A stretch of DNA of 11,651 nt, taken from a virus (taxonomy: Duplodnaviria; Heunggongvirae; Uroviricota; Caudoviricetes). Position numbers and translations under genes: made by a program. Positions 1,564 to 10,821 of this stretch are shown here, piece by piece. The notes below the pieces were generated by a model. It was given only the letters and a program-made list of their open reading frames with translations, made no database searches and was not told the DNA's origin. The stretch lies in the IMG/VR virus record IMGVR_UViG_2657245006_000001; one strand, given 5' to 3'. The stretch's first letter is position 1; each line of letters opens with the position of its first letter.

Positions 1564-1719
1564 TTACTCCTCAGGTTCGTAAGCTGTGAAGACAGCGACC
1601 TCCGTCTGGCCGGTTCGGATTCGTACCTCGCAGAGGTCTTTCCTCGTTACCAGTGCCGTCACTATGACGGTTAAACAGATGACGATCAGGGCGATTAACA
1701 TCGCCTTTTGCTGCTTCAT
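1564..1719 (-). CDS. hok: Hok/Gef-family type I toxin, 51 aa
   Basis: Hand translation gives MKQQKAMLIALIVICLTVIVTALVTRKDLCEVRIRTGQTEVAVFTAYEPEE: one N-terminal transmembrane helix and the conserved Hok periplasmic tail with Cys. AAGGAG lies 9 nt upstream of the ATG at 1719. Not in the ORF track because it is under 60 aa. Recalled as near-identical to HokD (RelF). Confidence 0.85.
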   Translation of the reverse strand: MKQQKAMLIALIVICLTVIVTALVTRKDLCEVRIRTGQTEVAVFTAYEPEE

Positions 1720-1775
1720 AGCCTGCTTCTCCTTGACCTTTCGGTCCGTAAGAGGCTAATCTCTATGTGTCGCAT
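1716..1775 (-). CDS. Mok-like leader ORF (19 aa) whose stop overlaps the hok start codon
   Basis: ATG at 1775..1773 opens MRHIEISLLRTERSRRSRL. Its TGA (1718..1716) overlaps the hok ATG (1719..1717). Resembles the mok/hok coupling arrangement but is much shorter than plasmid R1 mok; Shine-Dalgarno is weak. Confidence 0.3.
   Translation of the reverse strand: MRHIEISLLRTERSRRSRL
1733..1762 (+). promoter_or_regulatory. Candidate Sok-type antisense promoter facing into the hok leader
   Basis: TTGACC (1733-1738), 18-nt spacer, TAATCT (1757-1762) on the plus strand. A transcript starting near 1769 would be antisense to the leader-ORF initiation region (start 1775). A hairpin GCGTC-ttgcag-GACGC (1801-1816) flanked by direct TAATGTTAA repeats lies downstream. 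Confidence 0.3.
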
Positions 1776-1977
1776 AGATATGGCCTCAGATTAATGTTAA
1801 GCGTCTTGCAGGACGCGTAATGTTAACTGGGGCTTTTCTCTATCTGCCTTTTGGTGTTCATGCCTGAGACAGATAGCCTCAAGCACCCGCAGTCATTCTA
1901 CTTAACTAAGATTTCCCCGCAAACCGTTTTTGTCCGGCACAGTAAATATCCAACTAAACCAATGGCGTTCGCTGTAT

Positions 1978-2157: not shown

Positions 2158-2327
2158 TATTCCTCCTACAATCAATGTGCAATTACATTTAAACACACCT
2201 CAATTTGGCCGGACATATAAATATCTAAACCAGAAAAAATCACTTACATAGCGTTACAAACTCTTTAGTCTAAATATTCATCGTAAAACATTCCCCATAC
2301 TTATCAGCCCGTTCTGCGCCAGGTAGC

Positions 2328-2644
2328 TCATTGCCTTATCTGGGAATCTGTAATCAGGTTTCCGGATGCTGGTGGATTTTCGCGTTTTAGTTGTTCATAA
2401 AAGTGCACAGCTTTAACCAGTTCTTCTGATGTAACCGGGACTGGCGGGGCAGTGAATAAGGCCTGAATTTCATAGTTCGGCCTGTCGTTACAATCCTCTT
2501 TTTTCGGTACATATTTCCAGTCACCAGACCACTACTTCCCCTGAAAGTCCGTAACGCCTTTTTTTTCACGTAGCGATATCGCCATGCCACTGTTTTTGCT
2601 TGCCCCGCCGTTTCATGCCCTTCCTGATAATTAACCTCGCTCAT
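2328..2644 (-). pseudogene. Disrupted small gene: reading frame breaks between an A8 and an A6 tract
   Basis: Frame 1 from the ATG at 2644 gives the 85-aa track ORF with odd basic composition. A different frame gives a protein-like tail (...EIQALFTAPPVPVTSEELVKAVHFYEQLKRENPPASGNLITDSQIRQ) running to a TGA at 2328-2330, past the frame-1 stop. That frame contains an in-frame TAG (2532-2534) and an upstream ATG at 2585. The A8 run is plus T8 at 2559-2566. Confidence 0.3.
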
Positions 2645-2817
2645 TCATCGCCCCACTCATCACAATATGCTTCGACCGGAGTTTTTCCTGCTTCATAATC
2701 ATCACGCCATGCTTCAGCATCAGCAGCACTGCCACCACGTAACTCTGCATAGTCCATTAACAGTTCATGCCATTCTTCAAAACTGACGTTGTATTTAGTT
2801 GAACCAAAATCAGCCAT
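2641..2817 (-). CDS. Small acidic protein, 58 aa
   Basis: Hand translation gives MADFGSTKYNVSFEEWHELLMDYAELRGGSAADAEAWRDDYEAGKTPVEAYCDEWGDE. Its ATG overlaps the stop of the upstream 60-aa gene by 8 nt (ATGGCTGA), and its TGA overlaps the next ATG (ATGA). Not in the ORF track because it is under 60 aa. Confidence 0.5.
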   Translation of the reverse strand: MADFGSTKYNVSFEEWHELLMDYAELRGGSAADAEAWRDDYEAGKTPVEAYCDEWGDE

Positions 2818-2992
2818 TTTGTTCTTCCTCTTCGTCTTTTATTTCGTGATATGAGTAATTGCAGTAGTTAAAGAAAATATCTTTTGCTTCGTCATGTATT
2901 TCATCAGGCGTCGCATCATCATCCACTTCGAATTCATCCTCGAAATCTCCACCGGCTATTCCCGTTTCAATAATTATTTTAAACTTTCGCAT
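2810..2992 (-). CDS. Small highly acidic protein, 60 aa
   Basis: ATG at 2992..2990; product MRKFKIIIETGIAGGDFEDEFEVDDDATPDEIHDEAKDIFFNYCNYSYHEIKDEEEEQNG with a very acidic C-terminal half. Preceded on the mRNA by GGAGG, then a hairpin, then 7 nt. Confidence 0.55.
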   Translation of the reverse strand: MRKFKIIIETGIAGGDFEDEFEVDDDATPDEIHDEAKDIFFNYCNYSYHEIKDEEEEQNG

Positions 2993-2999
2993 TTAACTA

Positions 3000-3015
3000 C
3001 CGCCCTTTCGGGCGG
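3000..3015 (-). promoter_or_regulatory. GNRA-tetraloop hairpin between the Shine-Dalgarno and start codon of the 60-aa gene
   Basis: Minus-strand RNA reads GGAGG (3020..3016), then CCGCCC-GAAA-GGGCGG (3015..3000), then UAGUUAA, then AUG (2992). The loop is GAAA only on the minus-strand transcript (UUUC on the other strand). No U-tract follows, so it is not a terminator. Confidence 0.4.
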
Positions 3016-3085
3016 CCTCCTGATGTTCTGAGGGTGCAGAAATCCCTCCGGTTAAGGATTAAATTTTTAACAGAGCTAAATTTAA

Positions 3086-3442
3086 TTATTCAGTTCTGGA
3101 TTTTGTCGCCCTGCGTATCCGCGCTTTCGCGTTACGCTCAATCTGAATTAGCTTTTCTATATTTTTTCGCCTTTCCCGCTCCTCCTGACGCAAGAGCCTT
3201 ACATCATCTGCCAGTCTGGTTTCTCTTTTCGCCACAGAGAGCATCCAGTCAAATGGCTCCACAACTGCACCGCAGATTTTACAGCGGACCTGACGCTCTT
3301 TTTCGTCAACCCGGACAGAGGCGTGATGACAATATGGTCTTTCCGATGGCTCATAAAGAAAATTAACCTGATTACGAGGGTCATCCTCTTTTACCGGAAA
3401 TAAAACGATATTGCTTAACTCATCCTCTGGTTTTATTTCCAT
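3086..3442 (-). CDS. Hypothetical protein, 118 aa, Cys/His cluster and basic coiled-coil-like C-terminus
   Basis: Preferred start is the ATG at 3442..3440 with AGGAG 6 nt upstream (MEIKPEDELSN...). The track ORF extends to a GTG at 3499 directly after the upstream stop, a possible alternative. Motif YCHH...RCKICG, then an RE/K-rich tail. Confidence 0.55.
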   Translation of the reverse strand: MEIKPEDELSNIVLFPVKEDDPRNQVNFLYEPSERPYCHHASVRVDEKERQVRCKICGAVVEPFDWMLSVAKRETRLADDVRLLRQEERERRKNIEKLIQIERNAKARIRRATKSRTE

Positions 3443-5848: not shown

Positions 5849-6487
5849 ATGAGCAAGCAAACTATATCTGAACGCATAACCCAACGTATGCATGCGCTAA
5901 ACCTGAAAGGCAAAGACCTTGTCAATGGCACTGGCGCATCAAAAGGCTCCGTAAGTCAATGGATGAACGGTGGAGGAGCGCCGTCCTCGCGTTACATAAG
6001 TTCACTGGCAAAAATATTGAAAGTAAACGAAAATTGGCTTCTTAATGGAGGAGAGTTAAATACAGGTGATTCGCTTGATCTATCTTTACCGCCGATAAAA
6101 ACGGTTCCGCTACTATCACTTCAGCAGGCAGCAAGCTGGAGTGATTATATGAAAAATTCCTCAATAACCTCTTGTGTGCAGCTTGTCGGAGAAATCCCGG
6201 TCAATACCTTTGCAGTTGTTCTAGAGAGTGACAGTATGTCAACATCTGGTGGGGGAGTTTCCATCCCAAATGGTTCAACAGTTTTTGTTGATCCCGATCG
6301 AACCGTACAACCAGGAAATATTGTCCTTGCCTTACCCAAAGGGACCACAACACCTGTCATTCGTAAACTGGAGATAGAAGGGCCGGATATTCTTTTAGTC
6401 CCCACGAATCCTCGCTACCCTTCAATTATGCTGGATGATCTATCTTGCATATTGGGCGTATGCTTTAAAATTCAACAAGATATTTAA
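5849..6487 (+). CDS. cI: CI-like prophage repressor, 212 aa: N-terminal XRE-type HTH plus C-terminal S24 (LexA-like) autopeptidase domain
   Basis: ATG at 5849, TAA at 6485-6487. N-terminal HTH (ISERITQRMHALNLKGKDLVNGTGASKGSVSQWMNG). C-terminal domain has the Ser nucleophile context ESDSM and a downstream Lys (VIRKLEIEG), as in LexA and lambda CI. Confidence 0.85.
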   Translation: MSKQTISERITQRMHALNLKGKDLVNGTGASKGSVSQWMNGGGAPSSRYISSLAKILKVNENWLLNGGELNTGDSLDLSLPPIKTVPLLSLQQAASWSDYMKNSSITSCVQLVGEIPVNTFAVVLESDSMSTSGGGVSIPNGSTVFVDPDRTVQPGNIVLALPKGTTTPVIRKLEIEGPDILLVPTNPRYPSIMLDDLSCILGVCFKIQQDI

Positions 6488-6571: not shown

Positions 6572-6600
6572 TTGACCTGGAAAGTTCGTCTTTCTAAACT
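6572..6600 (+). promoter_or_regulatory. Candidate early-left (pL-like) promoter
   Basis: TTGACC (6572-6577), 17-nt spacer, TAAACT (6595-6600), with an A-tract just upstream (6561-6570). A short hairpin GCCATC-gtggt-GATGGC (6516-6532) follows the cI stop. Confidence 0.35.
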
Positions 6601-6779
6601 TCATTCATTCCCTCACCCCATCCTACAGAATGCAGGGCAATACTTCGAGTTACCAGGCAGTGGTCAGGGGTTAAGTAGCCAGCCCGAGGCGTAAGAACAT
6701 GACGGCAGGGTTCAACTTTAATAACTATGCAGCAGGTTTTTGTTCCGCTACCCCGGCGTTAAGGGGAAATGAGGTCAGC

Positions 6780-6935
6780 ATGGATACTATCGATCTTGGC
6801 AACAACGAATCTCTGGTGTACGGCGTGTTTCCAAACCAGGACGGCACCTTCACCGCAATGACGTATACCAAAAGCAAAACGTTTAAAACCGAAAATGGTG
6901 CCCGTCGCTGGCTGGAAAGAAACTCAGGTGAGTGA
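6780..6935 (+). CDS. Small hypothetical protein, 51 aa (alternative start at 6699 gives 78 aa)
   Basis: ATG at 6780 with GAGG 5 nt upstream; the ATG at 6699 has GAGG 9 nt upstream. Product MDTIDLGNNESLVYGVFPNQDGTFTAMTYTKSKTFKTENGARRWLERNSGE. Possibly YdaF-like by size and position (recalled, unverified). Confidence 0.5.
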   Translation: MDTIDLGNNESLVYGVFPNQDGTFTAMTYTKSKTFKTENGARRWLERNSGE

Positions 6936-6936
6936 T

Positions 6937-7065
6937 ATGGATTTTGACACAATCATGGAAAAGGCTTACGAAGAATACTTCGAAGGCCTTGCCGAAGGCG
7001 AAGAAGCTCACAGCTTCAACGAATTTAAACAGGCGCTTTCCAGTTCGGCAAAATCTAACGGCTGA
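6937..7065 (+). CDS. Small acidic hypothetical protein, 42 aa
   Basis: ATG at 6937, one nucleotide after the upstream TGA, with AGGTGAG upstream. Product MDFDTIMEKAYEEYFEGLAEGEEAHSFNEFKQALSSSAKSNG, stop at 7063-7065. The track ORF 6932..7141 is in another frame and looks spurious. Confidence 0.45.
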   Translation: MDFDTIMEKAYEEYFEGLAEGEEAHSFNEFKQALSSSAKSNG

Positions 7066-7094: not shown

Positions 7095-7313
7095 ATGCAG
7101 AAACGAGAACCCGTCATCATCGCGCCAGACTATACCGATGATGAACTTTATGAGTGGATGCGCCAGAAAATTAATGCAGCGCAGGATCTGAAATGGGCCA
7201 ATGAAGCCAGGGCTAAGCAGGCTGAAAATCTGTCCGCTCTGGAGCAGGATATCACCAATCTGGAAAAAGCAGCGGCATTAAGCATTGCCAGAATGATTAC
7301 ATACCCGCGTTAA
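7095..7313 (+). CDS. Hypothetical protein, 72 aa, probably helical
   Basis: ATG at 7095 with GAGG 7 nt upstream; TAA at 7311-7313. No recognisable family. Confidence 0.6.
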   Translation: MQKREPVIIAPDYTDDELYEWMRQKINAAQDLKWANEARAKQAENLSALEQDITNLEKAAALSIARMITYPR

Positions 7314-7668
7314 TAGCTAACCAACGAAGCTAAGGTTGGTAATTAAGGAGTTCTCCACGGGTGAGGTGGAGTGCGTGCGCCGGACACGGGTGAGCATCCG
7401 GCACTGACAGTTTACTGAAAGGATATTTCCCTGAAAAGTCAGACCATAACGCGAAAGCGCACGGCGAGGTAGCTGGTTCATAGATAGCCTGTCGTTAAAT
7501 TTTCGTCGACCGTGCGCTTCCGGTTGTGGCAACCCGCGAAATGGTGCGGCGGTAAGTATGGCGGGGTTATTTCTTCCCCGTTGAGGACACCGGGTTGTCA
7601 GGTTGACCATACGCTTAAGTGACAACCCCGCTGCAACGCCCTCTGTTATCAATTTTCTGGTGACGTTT
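7314..7668 (+). other. GC-rich structured non-coding block with no ORF (candidate structured RNA, regulatory element or gene remnant)
   Basis: All three plus frames are full of stops; the only minus ORF (7317..7652) starts at a non-ATG codon and is Arg-rich. Perfect stems: 7455-7464 with 7510-7519 (10 bp), 7592-7600 with 7620-7628 (9 bp), 7379-7384 with 7397-7402, 7320-7325 with 7335-7340. CACGGGTGAG repeated at 7356 and 7385. A sampled line hand-counts to about 60% GC. Confidence 0.3.
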
Positions 7669-7711
7669 GGCGGTATCAGTTTTACTCCGTGACTGCTCTG
7701 CCGCCCTTTTT
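7669..7711 (+). terminator. Candidate intrinsic terminator at the end of the structured block
   Basis: GGCGG (7669-7673) pairs with CCGCC (7701-7705); an imperfect inner stem extends the hairpin; T-run at 7707-7711 follows. A U-tract exists only for the plus strand. Confidence 0.4.
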
Positions 7712-7880
7712 AAAGTGAATTTTGTGATGTGGTGAATGCGGCTGAGCGCACGCGGAACAGTTAAAACCAAAAACAGTGTTATGGGTGGATTCTCTGTATC
7801 CGGCGTTAATTGTTAACTGGTTAACGTCACCTGGAGGCACCAGGCACTGCATCACAAAATTCATTGTTGAGGACGCGATA

Positions 7881-8069
7881 ATGAAAACGTTATTACCAAA
7901 CGTTAATACGTCTGAAGGTTGTTTTGAAATTGGTGTCACTATCAGTAACCCAGTATTTACTGAAGATGCCATTAACAAGAGAAAACAAGAACGGGAGCTA
8001 TTAAATAAAATATGCATTGTTTCAATGCTGGCTCGTTTACGTCTGATGCCAAAAGGATGTGCACAATGA
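7881..8069 (+). CDS. Small hypothetical protein, 62 aa
   Basis: ATG at 7881 with GAGGA 7 nt upstream; its stop overlaps the next ATG (ATGA at 8066-8069). Product MKTLLPNVNTSEGCFEIGVTISNPVFTEDAINKRKQERELLNKICIVSMLARLRLMPKGCAQ. Confidence 0.5.
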   Translation: MKTLLPNVNTSEGCFEIGVTISNPVFTEDAINKRKQERELLNKICIVSMLARLRLMPKGCAQ

Positions 8070-8257
8070 ATTCAGCATTTGTGCTTGTTCTGACAGTTTT
8101 TCTTGTTTCCGGAGAGCCAGTTGATATTGCAGTCAGTGTTCACAGGACAATGCAGGAGTGTATGACTGCAGCAACCGAACAGAAAATTCCCGGTAACTGT
8201 TACCCGGTCGATAAAGTTATTCACCAGGATAATATCGAAATCCCGGCAGGTCTTTAA
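8066..8257 (+). CDS. Small protein, 63 aa, with N-terminal signal peptide or membrane anchor
   Basis: ATG at 8066, coupled to the upstream gene. Product MNSAFVLVLTVFLVSGEPVDIAVSVHRTMQECMTAATEQKIPGNCYPVDKVIHQDNIEIPAGL; hydrophobic N-terminus, three Cys in the soluble part. Confidence 0.5.
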   Translation: MNSAFVLVLTVFLVSGEPVDIAVSVHRTMQECMTAATEQKIPGNCYPVDKVIHQDNIEIPAGL

Positions 8258-8349
8258 AACAGTTCCGTAATAAATATCCGGTTTCATTCTTATATGCCAG
8301 CAATGGCAGGGATTTGTTCATCCTTAAATCTGTCATGAGGTTAAAACAA

Positions 8350-10821
8350 ATGAGTAAAGTCTTTATTTGCGCCGCTATTCCTGACGAACTGGCAACAAGG
8401 GAAGAAGGCGCTGTGGCTGTAGCCACAGCCATTGAAGCTGGCGACGAACGCCGTGCTCGAGCAAAATTTCACTGGCAATTCCTGGAACATTATCCGGCTG
8501 CTCAGGACTGCGCTTATAAATTTATTGTCTGCGAGGATAAACCTGGCATACCCCGCCCTGCCCTCGATTCATGGGATGCTGAATATATGCAGGAAAACCG
8601 CTGGGATGAGGAGTCTGCTTCTTTTGTCCCGGTTGAGACTGAATCCGATCCGATGAACGTCACTTTTGACAAGCTGGCCCCTGAAGTACAGAACGCTGTC
8701 ATGGTTAAGTTCGACACATGTGAAAACATCACCGTTGATATGGTTATTAGCGCACAGGAATTGTTGCAGGAAGACATGGCAACATTCGACGGACATATCG
8801 TTGAAGCGTTGATGAAAATGCCAGAAGTTAACGCCATGTATCCGGAGCTTAAGTTGCACGCCATTGGGTGGGTTAAGCATAAATGTATTCCTGGTGCTAA
8901 ATGGCCCGAAATTCAGGCAGAGATGCGCATCTGGAAAAAACGTCGCGAAGGTGAACGCAAGGAAACCGGAAAATACACGTCTGTTGTTGATCTCGCCCGC
9001 GCCAGAGCCAATCAACAGTACACTGAAAATTCAACAGGAAAAATCAGCCCGGTCATTGCTGCCATTCATCGCGAATACAAGCAGACATGGAAAACACTGG
9101 ATGACGAACTGGCCTACGCTCTCTGGCCTGGTGATGTGGATGCCGGAAACATTGACGGCAGCATCCATCGCTGGGCAAAAAATGAAGTTATCGACAACGA
9201 CCGCGAAGACTGGAAGCGTATCTCGGCATCAATGCGCAAACAGCCTGATGCCCTTCGCTACGACCGCCAAACTATTTTTGGCCTTGTCCGTGAGCGTCCG
9301 ATCGACATTCACAAAGATCCCGTAGCACTGAACAAATATATCTGCGAATACCTGACGACAAAGGGCGTGTTTGAGAATGAAGAAACAGACCTGGGCACTG
9401 TTGATGTTCTCCAGTCATCAGAAACACAAACTGATGCAGTGGAAACTGAGGTATCTGATATCCCAAAAAATGAAACCGCGCCGGAAGCTGAACCATCTGT
9501 AGAGCGTGAGGGGCCGTTCTATTTCCTCTTCGCAGATAAGGACGGAGAAAAATACGGTCGCGCAAACAAACTTTCTGGTCTGGATAAGGCACTGGCTGCT
9601 GGCGCCACTGAAATCACAAAAGAAGAATATTTTGCCCGAAAAAATGGCACATACACGGGCTTACCGCAAAATGTAGATACCGCTGAAGATTCAGAACAAC
9701 CAGAGCCGATAAAAGTTACCGCTGACGAAGTAAACAAAATTATGCAGGCAGCCAATATCATCCAGCCTGACGCCGATAAGTTGCTTGCTGCATCACGTGG
9801 TGAATTTGTTGAAGGGATTAGTGACCCGAATGATCCGAAATGGGTTAAGGGGATCCAGACCCGCGATTCTGTGAACCAGAACCAGCATGAATCGGAACGG
9901 AACTACCAAAAAGCGGAACAAAACAGCCCAAATGCGTTACAAAACGAGCCAGAAACGAAACAGCCTGAATCAGTGGCGCAACAGGAAGTGGAAAAAGTCT
10001 GCACCGCCTGCGGTCAGACCGGCGGCGGCAACTGCCCTGATTGTGGCGCGGTAATGGGCGACGCAACATACCAGGAAACATTCGATGAAGAGTATCAGAT
10101 TGAAGTTCAGGAAGATGATCCGGAGGAAATGGAAGGCGCTGAACATCCACACAAGGAGAACACTGGCGGCAATCAGCATCACGATAGCGATAATGAAACT
10201 GGCGAGACGGCAGATCACTCAATTAAGGTGAACGGTCATCAAGAAATCACATCCACCAGCAGGACGTGTGACCATCTAATGATCGACCTTGAAACCATGG
10301 GAAAAAATCCTGATGCCCCGATCATCTCAATAGGTGCAATATTTTTCGATCCGCAAACCGGAGATATGGGACCGGAATTTAGTAAGACTATCGATCTGGA
10401 AACTGCTGGCGGAGTCATTGATCGGGACACCATTAAATGGTGGCTTAAGCAATCACGCGAAGCGCAATCTGCCATTATGACCGATGAAATCCCGTTAGAT
10501 GATGCACTGTTACAATTGTGGGAATTTATCGACGAAAACTCCGGTGAATTTTTTGTTCAGGTCTGGGGAAATGGAGCCAACTTCGACAACACGATTTTGC
10601 GCCGTTCATACGAACGGCAGGGGATCCCCTGCCCGTGGCGTTACTACAACGATCGCGATGTACGCACAATCGTTGAGCTGGGGAAAGCCATAGACTTCGA
10701 TGCCAGAACGGCTATTCCATTCGAAGGTGAGCGCCATAATGCACTTGATGACGCCCGTTACCAGGCAAAATACGTTTCAGTTATCTGGCAAAAACTGATC
10801 CCGAGTCAGGCTGATTCTTAA
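8350..10821 (+). CDS. Large early-left protein, about 823 aa: long N-terminal region of unknown function, acidic linker, C4 zinc ribbon, C-terminal DEDDh 3'-5' exonuclease domain
   Basis: Preferred ATG at 8350 with GAGG upstream (the track ORF starts at a TTG at 8314); TAA at 10819-10821. C-terminal roughly 190 aa (from about 10264) carries DEDDh motifs: MIDLET, WGNGANFD, HNALDDA. Zinc ribbon CTACGQTGGGNCPDCG near 10000-10046. Possibly related to proteins annotated as exodeoxyribonuclease VIII in prophages (recalled, unverified). Confidence 0.8.
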   Translation: MSKVFICAAIPDELATREEGAVAVATAIEAGDERRARAKFHWQFLEHYPAAQDCAYKFIVCEDKPGIPRPALDSWDAEYMQENRWDEESASFVPVETESDPMNVTFDKLAPEVQNAVMVKFDTCENITVDMVISAQELLQEDMATFDGHIVEALMKMPEVNAMYPELKLHAIGWVKHKCIPGAKWPEIQAEMRIWKKRREGERKETGKYTSVVDLARARANQQYTENSTGKISPVIAAIHREYKQTWKTLDDELAYALWPGDVDAGNIDGSIHRWAKNEVIDNDREDWKRISASMRKQPDALRYDRQTIFGLVRERPIDIHKDPVALNKYICEYLTTKGVFENEETDLGTVDVLQSSETQTDAVETEVSDIPKNETAPEAEPSVEREGPFYFLFADKDGEKYGRANKLSGLDKALAAGATEITKEEYFARKNGTYTGLPQNVDTAEDSEQPEPIKVTADEVNKIMQAANIIQPDADKLLAASRGEFVEGISDPNDPKWVKGIQTRDSVNQNQHESERNYQKAEQNSPNALQNEPETKQPESVAQQEVEKVCTACGQTGGGNCPDCGAVMGDATYQETFDEEYQIEVQEDDPEEMEGAEHPHKENTGGNQHHDSDNETGETADHSIKVNGHQEITSTSRTCDHLMIDLETMGKNPDAPIISIGAIFFDPQTGDMGPEFSKTIDLETAGGVIDRDTIKWWLKQSREAQSAIMTDEIPLDDALLQLWEFIDENSGEFFVQVWGNGANFDNTILRRSYERQGIPCPWRYYNDRDVRTIVELGKAIDFDARTAIPFEGERHNALDDARYQAKYVSVIWQKLIPSQADS

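Follow-up and report, generated by a model that had tools for sequence, protein, structure and literature searches.

We found that the spacer between the DicF small RNA and the dicB gene, at positions 7707–7873 of the window (the whole stretch of Caudoviricetes DNA that was analysed, 11,651 nucleotides), is a conserved four-helix RNA that is structurally related to the Rfam family STnc100. The operon in the window is the early-left (dicBF) one, and the prophage to which it belongs is lambdoid and Qin-like. In the reading that we favour, and consider quite probable, the known genes dicB and ydfD lie behind this STnc100-like RNA, its closing helix (H1) is cut by RNase III and the ATGA overlap of the two genes couples their synthesis. 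Both genes are already known, well-characterised prophage genes, and nothing new is added here about either; the work has some novelty, limited to the recognition that the dicB and kilR cassettes share a structured, STnc100-like RNA as their spacer.

An earlier note on this DNA had described two overlapping small genes of 62 and 63 amino acids, joined by an ATGA overlap. Both open reading frames are present, and the overlap was confirmed at 8066–8069.

7881–8069, + strand: dicB, 62 aa, cell-division inhibition protein (PF05358, NF049927, identity to WP_000854559.1).
8066–8257, + strand: ydfD, 63 aa, lysis protein (DUF1482; PF07358, identity to WP_001083297.1), in ATGA overlap with dicB.

The first reading frame matched the Pfam DicB model PF05358 over residues 1–62 of 62 (E = 1.9e-40; 136.8 bits against a cut-off of 27) and the NCBIfam model NF049927, "cell division inhibition protein DicB" (132.8 bits against a cutoff of 100), and the 63-aa frame matched the Pfam model PF07358 (DUF1482; E = 3.9e-26; 91.1 bits against a cut-off of 25). 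Their translations are WP_000854559.1 and WP_001083297.1 of L001, the 100%-matching record, and K-12 carries the same two accessions; the genes are dicB and ydfD, with proteins identical to those of K-12. Megablast with 7500–8400 gave matches in 4654 of 5426 complete E. coli genomes (~86%), in which the annotation beneath is dicB, ydfD and the exonuclease, and K-12 MG1655 showed 99.8% DNA identity over this segment. The same pair occurs in isolated phages, for example Tritos, PhiR42_1 and mEp460, and the overlap is kept as ATGA or GTGA in most homologues, L010 being a locus that lacks it. A longer in-frame reading frame of 97 aa (7776–8069) bears the annotation dicB in phage mEp460. It was rejected as dicB because chance alone would leave its additional 35 codons free of stops about 19% of the time, because it overlaps the RNA element and because the title of a 1988 paper by Cam names the internal start as the one from which DicB is translated.

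The 63-aa protein had also been credited with a signal-peptide-like N-terminus. Sequence inspection and comparison with homologues showed a hydrophobic stretch of ~12–13 residues followed by VSG|E, which diverged homologues keep as SAF[AV]L[VM][LM]TVFL..GE, but no basic n-region. A layout pairing a cytoplasmic protein with a membrane or secreted one is unproven for these genes, and the reported target of YdfD, IspG, is cytoplasmic.

The suggestion of a host-interference or exclusion module at the position of kil genes was correct as to functional class, given the published activities of the identical proteins, and Rac-type prophages carry kilR in the same slot. DicB acts through MinC to inhibit cell division and shuts out lambda-like phages that require ManYZ (PMC6832061). 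It binds MinC and directs it to the septum, blocking FtsZ rings, and the same DicB–MinC interaction stops DNA entry of ManYZ-dependent phages (PMC6832061, PMC10448788). YdfD causes cell lysis, which DicB suppresses; it is reported to bind IspG through its residues 1–28, causing starvation for isoprenoid precursors in which dividing cells lyse, and it is neutralised once DicB or SulA halts division (PMC8835842).

The gene order of the operon (repressor, ydfA/B/C, DicF, dicB, ydfD, exonuclease, excisionase) is accompanied by the following features outside the spacer.

6572–6600, + strand: PL-like promoter candidate from a consensus scan (TTGACC, 17 nt, TAAACT), the likely equivalent of dicBp.
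6780–6935, 6937–7065 and 7095–7313, + strand: small reading frames like ydfA, ydfB and ydfC, at the same offsets from dicB as in L001 and K-12.
7654–7706, + strand: DicF sRNA, 53 nt including its terminator hairpin, with a U-run at 7707–7711 (Rfam RF00039; RefSeq offset).
8295–8318, + strand: candidate weak terminator-like hairpin with a T-rich tail after ydfD (scan match).

The promoter candidate lies downstream of the repressor gene, in the position of K-12 dicBp between the repressor gene and ydfA, and the ydfA/B/C-like frames, with a Pfam DUF1391 match on 6699–6932, are the promoter-proximal genes. The likeness to the K-12 Qin dicBF operon extends from the identical proteins to the order ydfA–ydfB–ydfC–DicF–spacer–dicB–ydfD–exonuclease–xis–int. 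The two differ in the repressor, which in the window is a protein of 212 aa, encoded at 5849–6487, with a helix-turn-helix (HTH) and an S24-peptidase domain whereas K-12 has the 135-aa DicA, and in the downstream exonuclease, which is intact in the window but truncated by IS2 in K-12. Transcription of the operon is driven by the DicA-repressed promoter dicBp, upstream of ydfA; with a ydfA probe, northern blotting revealed one species that ends at DicF and a second, longer one, ydfABC–dicFB–ydfD (PMC10448788). By arithmetic alone, the reported transcripts of 1,146 nt and 1,608 nt (PMC10448788) would end at ~7850 and ~8312 of the window, and the hairpin at 8295–8318 is a plausible end of the longer one.

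The earlier note had placed the gene pair after a terminator. That terminator is real: it is the 3′ hairpin of DicF itself, plus its U-run, as follows from the placement of DicF by both Rfam and RefSeq. RF00039 (DicF) matched 7655–7706 over model positions 1–52 with 76.7 bits against a gathering score of 48, and RefSeq K-12 dicF (1649382–1649434) maps, by its offset from dicB, to 7654–7706.

Behind this hairpin lies an inverted repeat with arms of 19 nt (7716–7734 and 7845–7863), detected in a repeat search, that brackets the GTTAA and CCTGG motifs of the spacer and forms part of the following structure.

7707–7873, + strand: STnc100-like structured RNA spacer, four helices, 167 nt (MFE fold, Rfam, RNAalifold, own covariance model).
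7707–7734 with 7845–7873, + strand: H1, closing helix, with its core at 7727–7734/7845–7852.
7716–7734, + strand: 5′ arm of the extended H1, an inverted repeat with 7845–7863; predicted RNase III cut at ~7725–7727 (giving the 72-nt DicF).
7738–7742 with 7748–7753, + strand: H2, a hairpin.
7765–7800, + strand: variable centre.
7802–7811 with 7819–7828, + strand: H3, in which GTTAA repeats 1 and 3 are paired and repeat 2 lies in the loop.
7830–7834 with 7840–7844, + strand: H4, CCUGG/CCAGG with loop AGGCA.
7845–7873, + strand: 3′ arm of H1, whose last bases, in the predicted pair table, pair the dicB Shine–Dalgarno sequence (GAGGA, 7869–7873) with the DicF U-run.

The RNA of 7707–7880 folds with an MFE of −62.9 kcal/mol (z = −5.5), and none of 200 shuffled sequences folded as well. 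H1 has 28 pairs and one bulge in the MFE fold and so has the length of an RNase III site (about two turns, roughly 20 bp or more). The predicted unpaired probability of the dicB Shine–Dalgarno sequence is 0.14–0.18 in the unprocessed RNA versus 0.34 after the predicted cut. Strong occlusion of the ribosome-binding site by H1 was dropped as an explanation since this predicted gain in accessibility is only about two-fold, which makes translational control by H1 at most a weak suggestion.

Rfam STnc100 (RF02076) matched the window at 7718–7858 (model positions 21–154 of 206; E = 4e-6 to 7e-6) with 34.1 bits, which is below the gathering threshold of 47 bits although the helices are the same. Like the STnc100/PasD sRNAs, the window copy has the four-helix architecture and the invariant motifs GGUGAAU and CACC-NGG-AGGCA-CCN-GGCACC; it differs from them in its sub-threshold score, in lacking a promoter box and a terminator of its own, in lying directly behind the DicF terminator and in having H1 extended to about 21–28 bp. 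A scan of viral contigs with the pattern CACCNGGAGGCACCNGGCAC retrieved at least 120 loci, several of which score 77–165 bits as STnc100. The pattern fixed H4 and the 3′ half of the H1 core, so that their invariance is partly by construction, and left H2, H3 and distal H1 free; the H4 positions that it did leave free were complementary in each of 144 occurrences (G/C in 91, T/A in 53). In a set of 29 diverged copies, in which window-type copies were mixed with those of 77–165 bits, RNAalifold recovered H1–H4 independently and 16 of 26 pairs showed double-sided changes, with compensatory double changes at 8 of 8 pairs of H3. Across these copies, 90.8% of cells were paired, compared with 72.0% in shuffled alignments (reached in 0 of 500) and 36–44% in slid registers, and the covariation score was 0.500 against 0.174. 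Our own covariance model matched 7723–7855 of the window with 90 bits.

No other segment of the locus is conserved as well as the spacer. In nine diverged dicB loci, the spacer helices were 96–99.6% identical to those of the window, whereas identity was 76% for dicB codons 21–62, 73% for ydfD and 85% for the DicF terminator hairpin. The high identity of dicB-linked copies reaches into the synonymous sites of dicB codons 1–20, and it could in part stem from recent recombination instead of selection acting on the RNA. As the most conserved part of a locus in which K-12 has no annotation for it, the spacer RNA is a modest lead. Copies linked to dicB differed from the others in their surroundings and in H1, which is lengthened from about 8 bp to about 21–28 bp.

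dicB-linked copies (25 unique): 24 directly after a terminator; 0 with a TTGAC box at promoter distance; median uninterrupted H1 of 21 bp.
Other copies (70 unique): 2 directly after a terminator; 21 with a TTGAC box at promoter distance; median uninterrupted H1 of 8 bp.

These data bear on the GTTAA repeats and the CCTGG/CCAGG inverted repeat, which the earlier note had read as a possible operator giving the gene pair its own control. The motifs themselves were as described, with GTTAA starting at 7805, 7812 and 7820 (the latter two as GTTAAC) and CCTGG (7830–7834) and CCAGG (7840–7844) flanking AGGCA. The GTTAA cluster is not due to chance, given that of 5000 simulations of the window under a first-order Markov model only 1 contained three GTTAA in a 16-nt span on one strand or the other; across the window, GTTAA is enriched (44 matches against 21.7 expected). 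However, both motifs are parts of RNA helices, in which compensatory change, across a large and widespread family of prophage RNAs, has kept the pairing and not the sequence. In the Rac-type copy L014 (GACTGTAATT...GGTTGCAGTC), GTTAA repeats 1 and 3 are lost and every pair is retained, and with the H3 double changes seen family-wide, the repeat sequence was found not to be conserved among homologous loci. That pairing is conserved rather than the repeat sequence argues against a protein-binding DNA repeat, and the compensatory changes led us to reject the DNA-operator reading of both motifs.

A broader form of that reading holds that the GTTAA direct repeats and the palindrome are a repressor operator on an independent promoter for dicB–ydfD, located after the DicF terminator. 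The motifs are, in its favour, non-random and extremely conserved; a promoter upstream of dicB is given in database annotation and by Cam et al. 1988, both as cited in PMC10448788 and PMC11430063; and a weak promoter-like site with 8 of 12 matches can be seen by eye (GTGACT at 7689–7694, 16 nt, TAAAGT at 7711–7716). On the other side, GTTAA is replaced in L014 and across the family with pairing kept, as expected for RNA, and no sigma-70-like promoter on the + strand passed the scan of 7707–7880 (DicF to dicB). The TTGAC box of the free-standing relatives is present in none of the 25 dicB-linked copies. Northern blotting and RT-PCR placed dicB–ydfD on a polycistronic ydfABC–dicFB–ydfD transcript from dicBp, with no evidence of internal promoters (Ragunathan 2023, PMC10448788), and replacing dicBp with Plac made DicB phenotypes IPTG-dependent (PMC6832061). 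Own control of the gene pair thus finds no support in the scan or in the reported transcript, with which the older literature and annotation disagree; despite the negative scan, the weak site may still be a sigma-70 promoter. The operator model as a whole appears to us very improbable.

Comparison with Rac-type prophages supports the favoured reading of the spacer as a structured RNA. An element ~80% identical to it lies directly upstream of kilR in these prophages, and the homology ends just before the Shine–Dalgarno sequence of the following gene, dicB or kilR. The kilR-linked copies score 78–92 bits with our covariance model, including that of K-12 Rac (1418260–1418393), and 35.5 and 44.3 bits, again sub-threshold, with STnc100. 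In K-12 Rac, the annotated Hfq-associated sRNA KilS lies just upstream of the element, in the position of DicF, so that here too a DicF-like sRNA and, after it, a homologous spacer of the STnc100-like type come before kilR. Rac kilR and lambda kil occupy the same early-left slot before recombination or exonuclease genes, and both are FtsZ-directed division inhibitors of the PL operon. By contrast, DicB acts via MinC and ZipA, not directly on FtsZ as KilR and Kil do, and kilR is followed by ydaE where dicB is followed by the DUF1482 lysis gene. BLASTP between DicB and KilR gave no alignment at E ≤ 100, and homology of the two proteins was rejected on this ground; they are alike only in position and function. 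The spacer is thus a separable module, and the two cassettes share a design that comprises a division-related sRNA with its terminator, the STnc100-like spacer and a toxic division inhibitor.

The sharp end of homology just before the dicB or kilR Shine–Dalgarno sequence would also fit a block conserved mainly as a recombination junction, or linker, between phage modules, whose fold has no present function at dicB. The reach of the conserved block into the synonymous sites of dicB codons 1–20 and the presence of the same element beside many different genes speak for such a linker. Yet the family-wide covariation indicates selection on pairing, the extension of H1 is confined to the dicB and kilR contexts and an RNase III-dependent event has been reported in the dicF–dicB spacer (PMC5069750). 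We consider it improbable that the block is conserved mainly in this way.

Cleavage of H1, which the favoured reading includes, is suggested by the size of DicF. A 72-nt DicF arises by RNase III processing of full-length dicBF RNA (PMC5069750, PMC9438474, citing Faubladier 1990), and the dicF–dicB spacer is among the listed RNase III substrates (PMC2777011). Counting 71 nt on from 7654 gives 7725, by arithmetic from this second-hand length; because 7725 falls within the 5′ arm of H1, we infer that H1 is the helix that RNase III cuts. In RNA sequencing, a position labelled dicF–dicB and flagged as known (K-12 1649470) had 26 reads in an rnc mutant and 0 in the wild type; it corresponds to window position 7742, inside the element and 8 nt beyond the 5′ arm of H1, with only these 26 reads behind it. 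For Rac, the rnc-dependent kilR–sieB position 1418510 gives no support for H1 cleavage because it lies near the KilS 5′ end, outside the STnc100-like element at 1418260–1418393. The upstream RNase III site of the window, which yields the 5′ end of the 190-nt DicF, falls near 7518, where the MFE fold was uninformative as to a long helix. RNase III-cut helices are found in phage early transcripts at the lambda N leader, lambda sib and the T7 early intercistronic sites. Like these, the dicF–dicB helix is long and intercistronic in a polycistronic transcript, and its cutting would separate functional RNAs; it differs from them in closing an RNA of several helices that forms a conserved family in itself.

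According to the literature, most transcripts end at the DicF terminator, and dicB–ydfD is carried by those that read through it. We propose that the extended H1 is the site at which, as earlier work has it, RNase III cuts downstream of DicF; cuts in both of its arms would release the 72-nt DicF and an excised structured core of ~130 nt. The cut in the 3′ arm, at about 7852–7856, would leave a dicB–ydfD mRNA with a leader of ~25 nt, whereas in uncut RNA the DicF U-run would stay paired to the dicB Shine–Dalgarno sequence. The ATGA overlap may couple YdfD synthesis to DicB synthesis, so that, in this proposal, the lysis protein would not be made without its antidote. A further possibility, which we put forward tentatively and hold to be somewhat doubtful, is that the spacer was co-opted from the STnc100/PasD superfamily of prophage RNAs and serves, in Qin- and Rac-type prophages, as a portable, RNase III-gated insulator between DicF or KilS and dicB or kilR, which would set the maturation of the toxin mRNA and perhaps release a third regulatory RNA. 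If the spacer gates the toxin through RNase III, this would explain how DicF and KilS can be made without lethal DicB or KilR, and the STnc100/PasD family would gain its first functional context and a testable role.

Control of downstream termination, for instance by a put-like, polymerase-modifying antiterminator RNA as in phage HK022, was also considered for the element. The prophage has no obvious N homologue, kilR expression depends on read-through under NusG/Rho control (PMC10798246) and two adjacent stem-loops with invariant loops are present, all of which speak for such a role. However, our covariance model found no match in the HK022 genome at E ≤ 1, and homology to putL/putR was dropped on this ground; in addition, the element lies downstream of the DicF terminator, not before it, and the reported K-12 transcript ends just after ydfD (PMC10448788). 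We give this explanation almost no credence.

Finally, the spacer might be a trans-acting sRNA of the STnc100/PasD class, with its own targets and with its own promoter or release by RNase III, its proximity to dicB being secondary. Evidence against such an sRNA comes from RefSeq K-12, which annotates no RNA between dicF and dicB, from the dicB-linked copies, in which neither a promoter box (TTGAC in 0 of 25) nor a terminator of their own was found and which lie directly behind another terminator in 24 of 25 cases, and from the 0 wild-type reads at the spacer position against 26 in the rnc mutant, which point to removal and not accumulation of the spacer RNA. It is therefore unlikely, in our estimate, that the spacer acts chiefly in this way, although the free-standing relatives carry TTGAC boxes and terminators and score as STnc100, expression of STnc100 copies has been reported for EHEC (PMC5331693) and PasD, which binds Hfq, has many partners (preprint 10.64898/2026.05.13.724894). 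An sRNA function would be compatible with RNase III processing of the spacer between DicF and dicB, and the two are not mutually exclusive. The loops of H3 and H4 are invariant, and the repeat search found the 5′ end of DicF to be complementary to the H3/H4 junction, as might be expected of an sRNA.

The spacer RNA that separates DicF from dicB carries a stretch that could pair with DicF itself. The 5' end of DicF, UUCUGGUGACGUU (window 7655-7667), is complementary to AACGUCACCUGGA (window 7823-7835), with 9 contiguous pairs and 12 of 13 positions paired overall. This target comprises the 3' strand of helix H3 and the 5' strand of helix H4 of the spacer RNA. Because its motif, UCACC(U/G)GGA, is invariant throughout the STnc100-like family, pairing of DicF with these RNAs is thinkable, and on sequence grounds it might occur in cis or in trans. 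It is also possible that the complementarity is a product of chance.

Sequence conservation continues from the spacer into dicB. Across diverged loci, third-position identity in dicB codons 1-20 (window 7881-7940) was 0.80-1.0, indicating conserved synonymous sites, and in codons 21-62 of the same loci it was only 0.31-0.43. The conserved block therefore takes in the spacer and extends some 60 nt into the coding sequence, which could reflect either a recombination junction or a function at the nucleotide level.

In the Rac prophage of K-12, an annotated sRNA, KilS, occupies the position of DicF, directly upstream of an STnc100-like element and kilR. The features of this region (L141, 1418200-1418800) in NC_000913.3 are:

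1418405-1418502, minus strand, KilS, annotated sRNA
1418260-1418393, STnc100-like element

An RNase III-dependent position lies at the 5' end of KilS (NC_000913.3, 1418510), and the RNase III site that generates the 190-nt form of DicF thus has a parallel in Rac. STnc100-family RNAs were also found in other settings, with four copies in tandem on one viral contig (L029, IMG/VR, 2265-3380) and one copy between tRNA genes of the E. coli plasmid pGF4-B (L015, 2001-2112).

The overlap of dicB and ydfD is not universal. On plasmid pSTEC711_1 (L010, 1728-2116), where DicB is 60 aa long, a 2-nt gap separates the genes, and in two diverged loci (L011 and L013) the ydfD homologue has a GTG start, giving a GTGA overlap. 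A dicB with 95% identity and an E. coli-type spacer are present on contig L006 (JAGZPX010000007.1). The label assigns this contig to a metagenome-assembled genome of Veillonella parvula, probably through mis-binning of an enterobacterial prophage sequence.

Other genes of the window are as follows:

5849-6487, prophage repressor, 212 aa, HTH and S24-peptidase (LexA/cI-like)
8347-10821, gene next after ydfD, intact, 824 aa, Rv2179c-like 3'-5' exonuclease domain at the C-terminus
1717-1888, minus strand, sok, Rfam 106.7 bits
1564-1719, minus strand, Hok-like ORF, 51 aa

The repressor differs from that of K-12, DicA, which has 135 aa; likeness to DicA is limited to its N-terminal 71 residues. Since an S24-peptidase repressor stands in place of DicA, the dicB operon here may, unlike its counterpart in K-12 Qin, be SOS-inducible. 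A further difference concerns the exonuclease protein, which is intact in the window, whereas in K-12 an IS2 element cuts the homologue (ydfE region) short. Separately, sok and the Hok-like ORF form a hok/sok-type type I toxin-antitoxin locus (1564-1888, minus strand).
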